Source: a phage
Strand: one strand, 5' to 3'
DNA: 64,000 nucleotides
Sequence record: PX393109.1
This document shows positions 39,639 to 42,569 of this stretch, piece by piece (within the stretch, counting starts at the first letter, position 1; each line of letters opens with the position of its first letter). Position numbers and translations under genes: made by a program. A model generated the notes under the pieces. It was not told where the DNA came from. It saw only the letters and a program-made list of their open reading frames with translations, and did no database searches.

Positions 39639-39806
39639 ATGAAAATTCCGACTCTTGATCAATTACTCACCACAGCAATGCACACGGTGATCCGTCGTCT
39701 GGTCTGGAATATCCCTAAAAAGTATTTCTGGATGGTGGTGTTGGCCACCATCATTATCAGCGGATTCGCCACTTTTAGAACTCTGTTTTGGAGCCTGTTA
39801 GGATGA
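39639..39806 (+). CDS. small membrane protein (55 aa)
   Basis: ATG 2 nt after upstream stop; hydrophobic FWMVVLATIIISGFATF; stop overlaps PolX start (ATGA). Confidence 0.35.
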   Translation: MKIPTLDQLLTTAMHTVIRRLVWNIPKKYFWMVVLATIIISGFATFRTLFWSLLG

Positions 39807-40561
39807 CCTTCCGTATTGATGCTGTTCGCCACCTTCGCCAAATAGCCGAGCTTAAGAAAGCCCATGGTGATTCCGTGTGGCATGTTAGGGCGTATGATCG
39901 TGCAGCCCGTTCCTTGGATGATTACCCGTATGGTGTAACTTCCCAGATGAACTTCACTACAATCCCATGGATAGGTGCTGGGATTGCTAGCGAGTTAGAA
40001 GCCTTCGCTAAGTATGGCACCATGACTCCTAAGTTCATTGAACTTATGTCTAAAGTCCCAGAAGGTCGTGTTGCTTACTCCACTGAGGTTAAGGATATCA
40101 TTGAGTCCTACCTAACGGAAGTGACCAAACTGAGTCTTGCCGAGGGTAGCTCTGGTCGTATCTCTACAGCTGGTTCGGTACGTCGTGGTAAGATGTGGAT
40201 TCGCGACGTAGACCTGCTTACTACCTTCCCTCCAGAAATAGTTCGCCATGCTTTCCGTCTTACCGGTATGGAGGAACTGTATGGTAAGGATAAAAAGATC
40301 CGATTCGTCCATACTAATACTGGTATGGAATTTGATATCAAGATCTGTCCAGAAGAATCCTGGAACGCGTGCTTACTTCACTCCACAGGATCAATGCAGA
40401 ATAACGTACACATGCGTTCGGTGGCTAAGCGTATGGGCATGACTCTTAATGAGTATGGCCTGTTTAATGTAGAGACCGGTGAACGTGTGGATACTAATTC
40501 CTCTGAGGAAGAACTGTATCAGCTGCTTGGTCTGGAATACGTAGAACCTGAGAATCGCTAA
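39803..40561 (+). CDS. family X DNA polymerase (Pol beta-like nucleotidyltransferase), compact
   Basis: GSVRRGKMWIRDVDLLTT matches PolX palm GS.RRGK..D.D.L; HhH-like IPWIGAGIASELEAF; C-terminal YGLF...EEELYQLLGLEYVEPENR. Confidence 0.6.
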   Translation: MTFRIDAVRHLRQIAELKKAHGDSVWHVRAYDRAARSLDDYPYGVTSQMNFTTIPWIGAGIASELEAFAKYGTMTPKFIELMSKVPEGRVAYSTEVKDIIESYLTEVTKLSLAEGSSGRISTAGSVRRGKMWIRDVDLLTTFPPEIVRHAFRLTGMEELYGKDKKIRFVHTNTGMEFDIKICPEESWNACLLHSTGSMQNNVHMRSVAKRMGMTLNEYGLFNVETGERVDTNSSEEELYQLLGLEYVEPENR

Positions 40562-40563
40562 TT

Positions 40564-40599
40564 CCGCTCTTTTAGGGTGCTAAAAGGCTGTTAAAGTGT
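40564..40599 (+). promoter_or_regulatory. class A conserved promoter-like motif, copy 11
   Basis: CCGCTCTTTTAGGGTGCTAAAAGGCTGTTAAAGTGT. Confidence 0.6.
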
Positions 40600-40625
40600 C
40601 AATCCAACCGTAAGGAATAACAAAG

Positions 40626-42569
40626 ATGGAAAAAGTCGCTGCTCTGATAGAGCAAATTAAGAATGCGGCTAATGCATATTATAATGGTGACCAGCCCATT
40701 ATTACGGACGAAGAGTTCGATGCTCTTACCGAGAAATTAGCTGAGCTGGATCCTACTAACCCACTCCTCACTACCCCAGGCTGGGGAGTAACCGAAGCTG
40801 CTGAACATCTGGCTAAGTGCCCACATGGTTCATTCGTGGGTGGTCTTGACCAGGTTAAGATCGGTGCTGTGGAAGAGGGATTTAACTTCCTCCATGGTCA
40901 CGAAGAAGTTAAGGGATTCGTCGCTTCGGCTAAACTGGACGGCATCTCGGTAGTTCTGTATTACGACTACGACGGTAACTTCGTCCGTGGCTTAACTCGT
41001 CACGACGGCGTCACTGGTCTGGACATCACGAAGAGTCTGGAGTGTGCCGAGTTTCCTCGCCAGGTTCCTAAAGGTATTAAAGAAGTCCGCTGCGAAATCG
41101 TTATTCCCGATGATAAGTTCGAGCGGATCAGCCACGAGTACAGTAACCAGCGTAATGCTGCTTCTGGTATTGCTCTGGCTAAATACAGTGATCCTGCATT
41201 AATGGAACTGCTGGATGTGGTTGCATATTCGGTAACTGCATTCTACGAGGATGTGGATCACGAGACATGGATGGATGACTACAACCAGCTGCTACTATGT
41301 TTAAGTAAGGCTGGGTTCAAAGTAGTTAAGTACTTCGTTCTTCCTGCTGGTTATGTCAATACTTGGCTAGTGGCTAACCCACCATCTAAGTTCCGCGAAG
41401 ATCCGGTCTGCAACTACCTGTTGGATGGCGTAGTTCTGGGATCTCTGAATGTTGACTGGGATGAGAATATGCTGGGCAAGAATACTGTCCACTATAAGAT
41501 CAAGTACCAATCAGCATTCTATGACACTACCGTGGTTAAGGTACACTGGGTAGTTAGTGGTTACGGCCGAGTCGTGCCTACTGTTGAGTTCGAGACGGTA
41601 GACATGAGTGGAGTTAATGTAACTTATGCATCCGGATGGAATGCTGAGTACATCAAGAGTGCTGGTATCGGACCTGGTGCTAAGATCAAGATCAGTCGCC
41701 GTAACGAGGTAATTCCTCATATCGAAGAAGTCGTGGAACCCGTCACTGCGGTAATTCCTGAATTCGTCGATGGGGTACGTACTTTCTGGGATGGCGTGCA
41801 TATTCGCATCAAGACTAAGTTAGACCCGATGGTTATTCGTACGATAATCCGTGACTTCGCTCCTAAGGGTCTCGGTGGGACGAATATCAACAAGTTTGCC
41901 GAGCAGGCTAAACTAGATGATGTTGCCATGTTGAACGATATCATCGAGACTGGTCCATCTCATCCAGTATTCAGTATGGTAGAGATGTACGATGGCCCTC
42001 TCCAGCTTACTCGTCAGTCCTTCTTCAATATGAAGGATCGTCCTATCTCTATGGACCACATGCTGACCTGTACCTGGACGGATGGCCTTGGTTATGCAAC
42101 AGGAGTGCGTATTGCCACTGCGGTGACTCGCGACCAGATGATTCGTGTATTGCGTAACAATAGCTTCCACGACATGGTTAATGACGGTATCCAGGTCAAT
42201 ACCGAGGACTACAAAATCTGTAAGGCAATCTATGATGCATGCATGGGTTCCGTAGCTAAGAAGATTGTAGAGAATCAGGAAGTAATCCTGAAGGTGCTGA
42301 ATCTTCCTCTGAACTGGGTGGCCTCTAAGGTAGAGGAACCGCTTCCGGAAGGAAAGTTCAAGATCTGCTTAACTGGTAAGCTTAGTAAGCCTCGTAGCGA
42401 ACTGGTTAACTCCTGGATCAAATATGGCGTAGTCGAAGTCGGTATCGGCGACGCAGAATATCTGGTATGCGATAAACCAAGTCAGTCCAGTAAGTTTAAG
42501 GCTGCCGAAGCTAAGGGTACCAAGATCGTTACCGAAGATCAATTCCGTAAAATCATTGGAGCTGAATAA
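40626..42569 (+). CDS. ligA: NAD-dependent DNA ligase (LigA-like) with C-terminal BRCT
   Basis: N-terminal NAD-ligase Ia-like region (YY.GD.PIITDEEFD), adenylation KLDG motif (SAKLDGISVV), C-terminal BRCT-like FKICLTGKLS...EYLVCD. Confidence 0.8.
   Translation: MEKVAALIEQIKNAANAYYNGDQPIITDEEFDALTEKLAELDPTNPLLTTPGWGVTEAAEHLAKCPHGSFVGGLDQVKIGAVEEGFNFLHGHEEVKGFVASAKLDGISVVLYYDYDGNFVRGLTRHDGVTGLDITKSLECAEFPRQVPKGIKEVRCEIVIPDDKFERISHEYSNQRNAASGIALAKYSDPALMELLDVVAYSVTAFYEDVDHETWMDDYNQLLLCLSKAGFKVVKYFVLPAGYVNTWLVANPPSKFREDPVCNYLLDGVVLGSLNVDWDENMLGKNTVHYKIKYQSAFYDTTVVKVHWVVSGYGRVVPTVEFETVDMSGVNVTYASGWNAEYIKSAGIGPGAKIKISRRNEVIPHIEEVVEPVTAVIPEFVDGVRTFWDGVHIRIKTKLDPMVIRTIIRDFAPKGLGGTNINKFAEQAKLDDVAMLNDIIETGPSHPVFSMVEMYDGPLQLTRQSFFNMKDRPISMDHMLTCTWTDGLGYATGVRIATAVTRDQMIRVLRNNSFHDMVNDGIQVNTEDYKICKAIYDACMGSVAKKIVENQEVILKVLNLPLNWVASKVEEPLPEGKFKICLTGKLSKPRSELVNSWIKYGVVEVGIGDAEYLVCDKPSQSSKFKAAEAKGTKIVTEDQFRKIIGAE

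Follow-up and report, generated by a model that had tools for sequence, protein, structure and literature searches.

[quoted passage not shown] Both an annotation and an interpretation of the two genes can be found in the literature, so the repair reading is supported by this analysis but is not new; relative to the literature, only the stripped-down build of PolX is new. The DNA analysed was a 64-kb stretch (the window) making up about 55% of the phage genome, and this stretch shows 96.5% identity to Escherichia phage vB_EcoM_IME392 and 94.1% identity to EP_H11. The GenBank record of IME392 already names both the PolX and ligase genes, and the Carin-5 paper lists IME392 among the phages with a YerA41-like DNA polymerase. 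EP_H11 and 'EcoM_IME92' are named as SP15-like phages in a preprint (10.1101/2025.03.26.645540), according to which a uracil-DNA glycosylase (UDG) domain is fused to the SP15-like family-A polymerase, PolX and ligase occur in all SP15-like members but phiLo, SP15-like genomes are without a dedicated AP endonuclease, and SPO1-like phages are without PolX. The original prediction described the pair as unusual for a phage, and it is indeed rare, with PolX present in 9 of 50,697 phage records, but in view of this literature it is not a novel module.

Locus and gene order

A PolX gene adjoining an NAD+-dependent ligase gene had been predicted at 39803-42569, and these coordinates proved exact, with both open reading frames verified. 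The PolX ORF runs from an ATG at 39803 to a stop at 40561, and its 252-aa translation contains GSVRRGKMWIRDVDLL. The PolX ATG overlaps the TGA of a 55-aa ORF upstream (ATGA), and the ligase ORF begins 64 nt past the PolX ORF. The features at this locus are as follows:

39803..40561, + strand: compact family-X DNA polymerase, 252 aa (Pfam, PDB sequence match, AF2, Foldseek, alignments)
40626..42569, + strand: NAD+-dependent DNA ligase, LigA type, 647 aa (Pfam, PHROG, alignment with E. coli LigA and YerA41 ligase)
42569-42823, + strand: ACP-like ORF (ORF layout)
39059..43179, + strand: probable transcription unit of orf123, orf55, PolX, LigA, the ACP-like ORF and orf88 (terminator scan and ORF layout)

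Terminator-like hairpins at 39059-39079 and 43160-43179 flank the last of these and weakly suggest that the region between them is probably one transcription unit; the terminator consensus scan gave 5 sites, compared with 2.6 expected. A sigma-70 promoter scan of the sequence gave 12 sites against a shuffled background of 7.9 +/- 3.0, and was thus not above background. The phage encodes its own RNA polymerase.

Besides the window, IME392, EP_H11, and a metagenomic contig of 58% identity were the only sequences with PolX-ligase adjacency, and it was not found in Ab1-TPeters, YerA41, or Vibrio phage 2.275.O. In Acinetobacter phage Ab1-TPeters the two genes are 16 kb apart, and in YerA41 they occupy separate loci. 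A conserved PolX-ligase operon as a sign of coupling was ruled out, as the adjacency is confined to the IME392 clade, and gene order therefore adds little.

The compact polymerase and the ligase

The identification of the 252-aa protein as a Pol beta-like family-X polymerase held up, with Pfam matches above cut-off and an intact Asp triad and PolX motifs. HHH_8 matched PolX residues 8-73 (E 1.5e-12) and DNA_pol_B_thumb matched residues 191-252 (E 1.1e-20), both exceeding their curated cut-offs, as did DNA_ligase_aden in the neighbouring product. Among solved structures, the sequence is most similar to 3au2, the Thermus thermophilus PolX (E 1.5e-21). An AF2 model of PolX (pLDDT 92) matched Pol beta and Pol lambda in Foldseek with E values of about 1e-14, and the palm and C-terminal subdomain fold was found to be present by Pfam, AF2 and Foldseek alike. 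None of the catalytic aspartates is missing: D135, D137 and D178 align with Pol beta D190, D192 and D256 in both the mafft and A1 alignments, and among 38 compact relatives the D135 and D137 positions are invariant, while the D178 position is Asp in 32. The motifs GSVRR (124-128) and TGS (195-197) are present, and the dNTP-binding residues R128, G196-S197, N201 and R205 are all kept; at the steric gate, H193-S194 takes the place of YF or HF. An aminoglycoside or other non-polymerase nucleotidyltransferase was ruled out, since the matches are to PolX families and structures only and the PolX-specific motifs are intact. By these sequence features the protein is a real family-X polymerase, with predicted polymerase activity.

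The compactness of PolX, remarked on in the original prediction, is explained by the deletion of one whole subdomain. An 8-kDa-like HhH domain (residues ~1-85) is joined straight to the palm (~92-190), without the central HhH 'D' subdomain, and is followed by a C-terminal nucleotide-selection subdomain (191-252). Just 8 PolX residues fall in the alignment columns of Pol beta 90-150, and in the AF2 model helix 76-82 is followed directly by palm helix 94-114, with no central subdomain between them. This central HhH subdomain (D, also called 'thumb', or 'fingers' in Pfam) contacts the primer strand. Since ASFV Pol X is also without it, the subdomain is dispensable for membership in family X.

The N-terminal domain is altered as well. 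The position of Pol beta K72, the dRP-lyase Schiff-base lysine, is occupied by E64 in PolX; at the 5'-phosphate pocket positions K35, K60 and K68 there are H27, T52 and G60, respectively; and the net charge of the domain is +1, compared with +9 in Pol beta. Glu is found at the K72 position in 11 of 39 aligned compact proteins, including the window PolX and all of its nearest relatives. Because K72, K68 and K35 are replaced and the domain is near-neutral, a Pol beta-type dRP lyase is not expected in PolX.

Similarly compact PolX proteins make up a sizeable subfamily in metagenomes, of which the window PolX is a member. The genomic context of the more distant members was uninformative, their contigs being approximately 2 kb in length, and an IMG/VR scan gave distant relatives only, about half of them from giant-virus MAGs. 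In the literature searched, no account was found of a PolX that has the 8-kDa domain yet is without the central subdomain, which is not proof of absence. A tentative reading, which we regard as possible but rather doubtful as a whole, is that the fusion of an 8-kDa-like domain to the palm without a central HhH subdomain is an undescribed PolX architecture that is widespread in metagenomes, and that in the IME392 clade the N-terminal domain, with its lyase and 5'-phosphate pocket gone, may have been repurposed as an adaptor docking PolX on the UDG-fused replicase, DNA engagement and AP-site processing then occurring in trans.

The ligase had been predicted to be a full-length LigA with BRCT. 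The 647-aa product is of LigA type, and its alignment with PHROG 3869 'NAD-dependent DNA ligase' (E 4e-87) extends over the full length, but the BRCT match (E 0.008) scores 16.8 bits, short of the cut-off of 21.3, and there is no Cys4 zinc finger. Pfam Nlig-Ia, DNA_ligase_aden and DNA_ligase_OB were matched above cut-off, NCBIfam LigA models matched but under their cut-offs, and E. coli LigA 2owo aligned with the window ligase over residues 12-370. The layout consists of an Ia domain, an adenylation domain, an OB fold (DNA_ligase_OB, E 3.4e-13), a putative divergent HhH region in which no Pfam match to an HhH domain was obtained, and a weak candidate BRCT whose LTG.LS / SK..A..G signature aligns with the E. 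coli BRCT. Nlig-Ia, the NMN-binding domain associated with NAD+ specificity, matched with E 3.7e-07, and Y18, D28 and D32 are invariant (alignment A8). The adenylation lysine lies in the motif K103-L-D-G (DNA_ligase_aden, E 1.1e-18), and R125, E157, R176, D267 and K291 are invariant in the alignment with E. coli LigA; the position of E. coli K290 is Gly in the window ligase and Glu in the active YerA41 ligase. Between residues 262 and 482 the window ligase is devoid of Cys, and the segment aligned with E. coli C408-C432 contains no Cys either in the window ligase or in that of YerA41. These two zinc-finger-less ligases are both of the NAD+ type and show 28% identity. When the window ligase was used as a tblastn query, full-length matches came from five phages only, namely IME392, EP_H11, RP13, SP-15, and Ab1-TPeters, all of which except Ab1-TPeters are named in the SP15-like group by the literature.

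Probable uracil removal and alternative roles

Several other genes in the window bear on the role of PolX and LigA:

20983..24270, + strand: SP15-like family-A DNA polymerase (PolA), 1095 aa from ATG (Pfam DNA_pol_A, PDB matches, AF2, Foldseek)
813..1670, + strand: FEN-like 5'-3' exonuclease (Pfam 5_3_exonuc_N, E 2e-12)
14484..18020, + strand: thymidine-hypermodification and nucleotide-pool cluster (Pfam)
57513-57983, + strand: dUTPase (Pfam dUTPase, 1.9e-35)
58269-58892, + strand: dCTP deaminase (Pfam DCD, 9.5e-24)

PolA is made up of a UDG-fold N-terminal domain (~1-165), a 3'-5' exonuclease, a polymerase domain, and a C-terminal extension. Its top PDB matches were 9qhs and 9qlh, which are phage DNAPs of 1142 and 1306 aa; the alignment of the polymerase and CTD region with 9qhs runs to residue 1116 of 1142, and the C-terminus also matches the deposited phage DNAP structure 9qli. 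The UDG fold was detectable by structure prediction and Foldseek, but not by sequence searches. Using an AF2 model of residues 1-206 (pLDDT 81), the best 50 Foldseek matches all belonged to the UDG superfamily, whereas by sequence alone the domain had no Pfam match, and both phmmer against the PDB at E 10 and a word-indexed protein search came back empty. The stacking Phe is conserved, as is the motif-B His, which lies in MHH at about PolA residue 135, and motif A is GDE as opposed to the family-4 GEAPG, so glycosylase activity of this domain is only putative. PolA is proposed to be both the source of abasic sites and the docking platform for PolX. Replication genes in the window comprise a primase-like Toprim, a helicase, PolA, RNase H, FEN, and topoisomerase II.

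The 14484..18020 cluster includes HMUDK_hel (5-hmdU DNA kinase helical domain, 4.8e-35), AAA_28 (a P-loop protein), Thymidylat_synt (a thymidylate-synthase homologue, 4.7e-12), and a YfbR-like 5'-deoxynucleotidase (1.7e-14). The dUTPase and dCTP deaminase set the supply of dUTP and dUMP, and thereby the risk of dU misincorporation. The 69 window ORFs of at least 90 aa, from about 55% of the genome, gave no match to an AP endonuclease family or a stand-alone glycosylase family. Acb1-like and NADAR counter-defence genes also lie in the window.

It had been suggested that the pair, with the core enzymes of short-patch base excision repair, could repair abasic sites in heavily modified DNA. The abasic-site part of this suggestion fits both the published SP15-like model and the gene context of the window, but classical Pol beta short-patch repair with a dRP lyase was ruled out, as K72 (replaced by Glu), K68 and K35 are missing. 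The repair reading is supported by the intact catalytic motifs in both enzymes, the UDG-fold PolA, and the hypermodification and dU-pool genes, and the window shares with SP15-like repair systems a UDG-fold replicase with a C-terminal extension, PolX together with an NAD+ ligase, and, within the window, no dedicated AP endonuclease. In YerA41, dU is cut out by the UDG domain in front of the polymerase, which then bypasses the abasic site, PolA and PolX form a stable complex, PolX incises AP/THF sites to leave a 3'-OH and then fills the gap, and the NAD+ ligase seals the nick (10.1101/2025.03.26.645540). By analogy, the same order of steps would apply to the window phage, from UDG excision and bypass to PolX incision and filling and LigA sealing, and the window PolX may likewise incise AP sites and bind the replicase. 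Docking to PolA is probably needed for the window PolX to engage DNA, given that it has no lyase lysine, a near-neutral N-terminal domain, and no primer-binding HhH subdomain. The 5'-sugar-phosphate would probably be removed as a flap rather than by a lyase, and the 5'-deoxyribose-phosphate or flap left by the lyase-less PolX may be taken off by the FEN-like exonuclease. LigA very likely joins Okazaki fragments too, and would thus not be dedicated to repair. No active site is known with which a PolX that has no PHP domain could act as an AP endonuclease, which counts against the repair reading. The YerA41 activities may also not transfer, since its PolX matches that of the window only over the palm and C-terminal subdomain, and AP-endonuclease activity of a PHP-less PolX comes from a single preprint (10.1101/2025.03.26.645540).

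Ordinary lagging-strand maturation is an unlikely function of the pair, one in which PolX would fill short gaps left by the replicase on hypermodified DNA after primer removal by RNase H/FEN, LigA would join Okazaki fragments, and abasic repair would be incidental. Okazaki joining is the classic role of phage ligases such as those of T4 and T7, which favours this explanation, as do the location of the pair among replication genes and the fact that no second ligase was seen in the window. However, PolX tracks the UDG-fused SP15-like PolA and is missing from SPO1-like phages, which need Okazaki maturation too (10.1101/2025.03.26.645540), and its presence in so few phage records argues against a general requirement in replication.

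A counter-defence role, with the pair mending nicks, gaps or abasic sites that host glycosylases or nucleases introduce without involvement of the phage UDG domain, would agree with the Acb1-like and NADAR genes and with a predicted T-hypermodified genome that is a target for modification-dependent defences, but is quite improbable, because the published PolX complex is with the phage replicase and so points to self-generated lesions. It is very improbable that the PolX-like protein is inert or a non-polymerase nucleotidyltransferase acting only as a scaffold or nuclease: although a whole DNA-binding subdomain is missing, the basic pocket of the N-terminal domain is lost, and noncanonical bacterial PolXs with domain deletions exist, the inactive noncanonical PolXs show altered Asp triads and no GS motif, the triad, GSxRR, the GS cis-peptide motif, N279 and R283 (Pol beta numbering) are conserved across the compact subfamily, and ASFV PolX functions with still fewer domains.

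If the YerA41 model of uracil removal holds here, this coliphage would have a self-contained uracil purge for DNA that needs full hypermodification to escape host nucleases, which would bear on resistance to dUTP-based and restriction defences, and on why such phage DNA resists sequencing. The compact PolX would be a natural minimal gap-filling enzyme in a tractable E. coli phage, and could reveal which subdomains a PolX can do without once a replicase carries it.

Comparison with known systems

Bacterial PolX proteins, such as those of T. thermophilus and B. subtilis (POLXc and PHP), include the closest solved sequence relative, 3au2. Their PHP domain is the seat of the AP-endonuclease and 3'-5' exonuclease activities, and the window PolX differs from them in having neither this domain nor the central HhH subdomain. 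With Pol beta, the window PolX shares the 8-kDa-type HhH fold, the palm Asp triad, the C-terminal subdomain, and the GSxRR and TGS..N..R motifs, but Pol beta residues ~90-150 are deleted, R40 is replaced by D32, and Y271-F272 by H193-S194.

Among eukaryotic viruses, the PolX and ligase of Phaeocystis globosa virus are reportedly a single fused polypeptide (Fernandez-Garcia et al. 2017, as cited in 10.1101/2025.03.26.645540), for which lyase activity is said to have been found. This giant virus resembles the window phage in that PolX and ligase are physically coupled for gap repair, whereas in the window there are two genes 64 nt apart and the ligase is of the NAD+ type. ASFV Pol X, a minimal enzyme of 174 aa, is likewise a trimmed viral PolX that works with a viral ligase in abasic repair, a role that would be shared by the window PolX, and both have His at the position of Pol beta Y271; ASFV has a separate AP endonuclease, pE296R, whereas none was found in the window.

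YerA41 and the SP15-like phages are parallels in gene content. The YerA41 PolX is 298 aa in length, compared with 252 aa in the window, and by eye appears to keep a D-like HhH segment (LTGIGELKS); the two proteins show 37% identity, over the palm and C-terminal subdomain only, and the PolX and ligase genes that are adjacent in the window are dispersed in YerA41. In common with the window, these phages have no dedicated AP endonuclease, and they share with it membership in the same phage group, a UDG-fold PolA, PolX, a zinc-finger-less NAD+ ligase, and T-hypermodification genes.

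Identity of the polymerase and the ligase

According to the original prediction, a Pol beta-like polymerase sits directly upstream of a full-length LigA with BRCT at 39803-42569, and ORF calling returned two adjoining plus-strand ORFs with exactly these limits.

The PolX-ligase region
39639-39806, plus strand: 55-aa ORF, one segment of it hydrophobic and helix-like; ATGA overlap with the PolX start
39803-40561, plus strand: PolX, family-X DNA polymerase, 252 aa; its ATG overlaps the TGA of the 55-aa ORF
40626-42569, plus strand: LigA, NAD+-dependent DNA ligase, 647 aa
42569-42823, plus strand: ACP-like ORF, 84 aa; Pfam PP-binding, E 1.5e-08; PHROG acyl carrier protein

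The 55-aa ORF is translationally coupled to the PolX start through the ATGA overlap, PolX and LigA are 64 nt apart with a good AAGGAA ribosome-binding site in between, and the ATG of the ACP-like ORF overlaps the ligase stop codon. Hairpins resembling terminators, found by consensus scan only at 39059-39079 and 43160-43179, might bracket a six-gene unit.

PolX residues 8-73 matched Pfam HHH_8 (E 1.5e-12) and residues 191-252 matched DNA_pol_B_thumb (E 1.1e-20), while no PHROG family was matched. When aligned with Pol beta, ASFV Pol X and homologues from metagenomes, PolX has D135, D137 and D178 in the columns of Pol beta D190, D192 and D256, and it also shows GSVRR, the GS cis-peptide motif, N201 (Pol beta N279) and R205 (Pol beta R283). 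The catalytic aspartates being present, the identification as a Pol beta-like polymerase is borne out; a non-polymerase nucleotidyltransferase is ruled out by the aspartates, the PolX motifs and the PolX family matches.

The ligase matched Pfam Nlig-Ia, DNA_ligase_aden and DNA_ligase_OB above cut-off and aligned end to end with PHROG 3869, confirming the LigA type, and its alignment with E. coli LigA (2owo) covers residues 12-370. The BRCT match was below threshold, yet the expected signature is visible. When the window ligase was aligned with both E. coli LigA and the ligase of the SP15-like phage YerA41, K103-LDG, R125, E157, R176, D267 and K291 were invariant, and the four zinc-finger cysteines were absent from both phage ligases, so that "full-length LigA with BRCT" holds only in part. 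The two phage ligases are both of the NAD+ type and share 28% identity. Using tblastn, full-length relatives were found only in IME392, EP_H11, RP13, Ab1-TPeters and SP-15, all but Ab1-TPeters (four of five) being named as SP15-like in the literature. The ligase almost certainly also joins Okazaki fragments.

A compact polymerase X subfamily

The closest solved relative of PolX by sequence is T. thermophilus PolX. Residues 119-250 and 9-90 align with residues 182-312 and 8-93 of that enzyme, respectively, so that about 88 residues of the bacterial protein correspond to about 28 in the window. Alignment shows that the central helix-hairpin-helix subdomain is deleted, eight residues occupying the columns of Pol beta ~90-150, a region called "D", "thumb" or "fingers" (Pfam and older usage). 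In a confident AlphaFold2 model (pLDDT 92.1), the fourth helix of the N-terminal domain (76-82) runs directly into the long palm helix (94-114). Compared with Pol beta, the lyase nucleophile K72 is replaced by E64, the 5'-phosphate pocket residues K35, R40, K60 and K68 by H27, D32, T52 and G60, and the steric-gate pair Y271-F272 by H193-S194; the net charge of the N-terminal domain is +1, as against +9.

Searched with a profile, 1.84 billion representatives yielded 9,358 PolX relatives, and about 40 among the best 150 were single-stretch proteins of 234-285 aa. Since the central subdomain was missing from all 38 of the compact proteins aligned, with 5-28 residues in its place, the compact build defines a subfamily and is no one-off. 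The K72 column holds Glu in all of the nearest relatives (P0001-P0003, P0022-P0026) and Lys in roughly half of the compact proteins, usually together with K35. Two relatives carry the compact module C-terminally, P0069 (1055 aa) after a long repeat-rich region and P0125 (406 aa) after an extra N-terminal domain of ~170 aa. No description of the compact architecture itself was found in the literature that could be searched.

Replicase and accessory genes

The 4-kb PolX-ligase region is 96.5% identical to Escherichia phage vB_EcoM_IME392, whose record lists a "putative DNA-directed DNA polymerase family X" and a "putative DNA ligase", and 94.1% identical to EP_H11. EP_H11 and "EcoM_IME92" have been named as likely T-modified members of the SP15-like phages, which are defined by a UDG (uracil-DNA glycosylase) domain fused to their family-A polymerase (bioRxiv 10.1101/2025.03.26.645540, 2025), and the Carin-5 paper (PMC12686479) also places IME392 among phages with a YerA41-like DNAP.

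Replicase and RNA polymerase genes
20983-24270, plus strand: PolA, family-A DNA polymerase, 1095 aa; matches phage DNAP structures 9qhs, 9qlh and 9qli
20983-21480, plus strand: UDG-fold domain of PolA (residues ~1-165), from predicted structure
25383-33164, plus strand: split multisubunit RNA polymerase beta/beta'-like genes, so annotated in IME392

The structure matches span the polymerase domain and C-terminal extension of PolA, and its N-terminal domain gave no sequence match in Pfam, phmmer against the PDB or a word-indexed protein search. When residues 1-206 were modelled with AlphaFold2 (pLDDT 81), the best 50 structure matches all belonged to the UDG superfamily (UdgX, family-4 UDG, MUG/TDG). 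The stacking Phe and motif-B His are kept in seven homologues; motif A reads GDE in PolA and its nearest homologues and GIG or AEG in distant ones. A dCTP deaminase, dUTPase, FEN-like exonuclease and RNase H are also encoded, and no AP endonuclease or stand-alone glycosylase family was found in the 69 window ORFs that are 90 aa or longer. The RNA polymerase genes separate PolA from the repair genes, which the phage probably transcribes with its own enzyme, making sigma-70 promoter scans uninformative.

Other genes of the window
1667-4432, plus strand: SbcD/Mre11-SbcC/Rad50-type protein, single polypeptide, 921 aa
10236-11618, plus strand: full-length BCCT betaine/carnitine/choline transporter, Pfam E 4.3e-92
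14484-18020, plus strand: 5-hmdU DNA kinase helical domain (E 4.8e-35, on its own ORF) and neighbours
33956-34480, plus strand: Acb1-like anti-CBASS protein, E 1.4e-06, candidate counter-defence gene
54483-55142, plus strand: NADAR-domain protein, E 7.9e-27, candidate counter-defence gene

The 921-aa protein joins an SbcD/Mre11-type phosphoesterase (residues 1-184) to an SbcC/Rad50-type ATPase with a zinc-hook-like match, and its gene immediately follows that of the FEN-like exonuclease (813-1670). The neighbours of the kinase helical domain are a P-loop protein on an ORF of its own, a homologue of thymidylate synthase and a YfbR-like 5'-deoxynucleotidase; two genes may together make up the kinase. 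The presence of this domain contrasts with the statement that 5HMUDK "could not be detected", made of RP13 directly after a sentence on EP_H11 and IME392 (10.1101/2025.03.26.645540). The BCCT transporter is an unusual auxiliary gene with a methyltransferase on one side (8482-9222) and a PIG-L deacetylase on the other (11705-12316); it may serve to take up a precursor for the DNA modification.

Comparison with the YerA41 repair system

All SP15-like phages but phiLo encode both DNAP X and a ligase, and no dedicated AP endonuclease was found in them; in YerA41 the replicase makes abasic sites at dU, PolX, which co-elutes with the replicase, cuts AP/THF sites to leave a 3'-OH and then fills the gap, and the ligase seals the nick (10.1101/2025.03.26.645540). 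Given this biochemistry and the placing of IME392 and EP_H11 in the same group, the proposal that PolX and the ligase act in abasic-site repair is essentially the published model for the lineage, and it is supported by that model and by the gene content of the window.

YerA41 PolX is longer (298 aa, compared with 252 aa); judged by eye, it seems to retain a D-like HhH stretch (LTGIGELKS), and Ile occupies its K72 position. Since YerA41 PolX matches the window PolX over residues 119-252 only, at 37% identity, AP-endonuclease activity of the latter is a property that we infer by analogy. The PolX-ligase adjacency is clade-specific: it recurs in a metagenomic relative (58% identity) in which the ORF downstream shares 72% identity with the ligase, and is absent from Ab1-TPeters (genes 16 kb apart), YerA41 and Vibrio phage 2.275.O. 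With this pair, a phage repair system already described gains another member, one that is structurally trimmed; what remains new is the compact, lyase-less PolX architecture, possibly together with a dependence of this PolX on the replicase.
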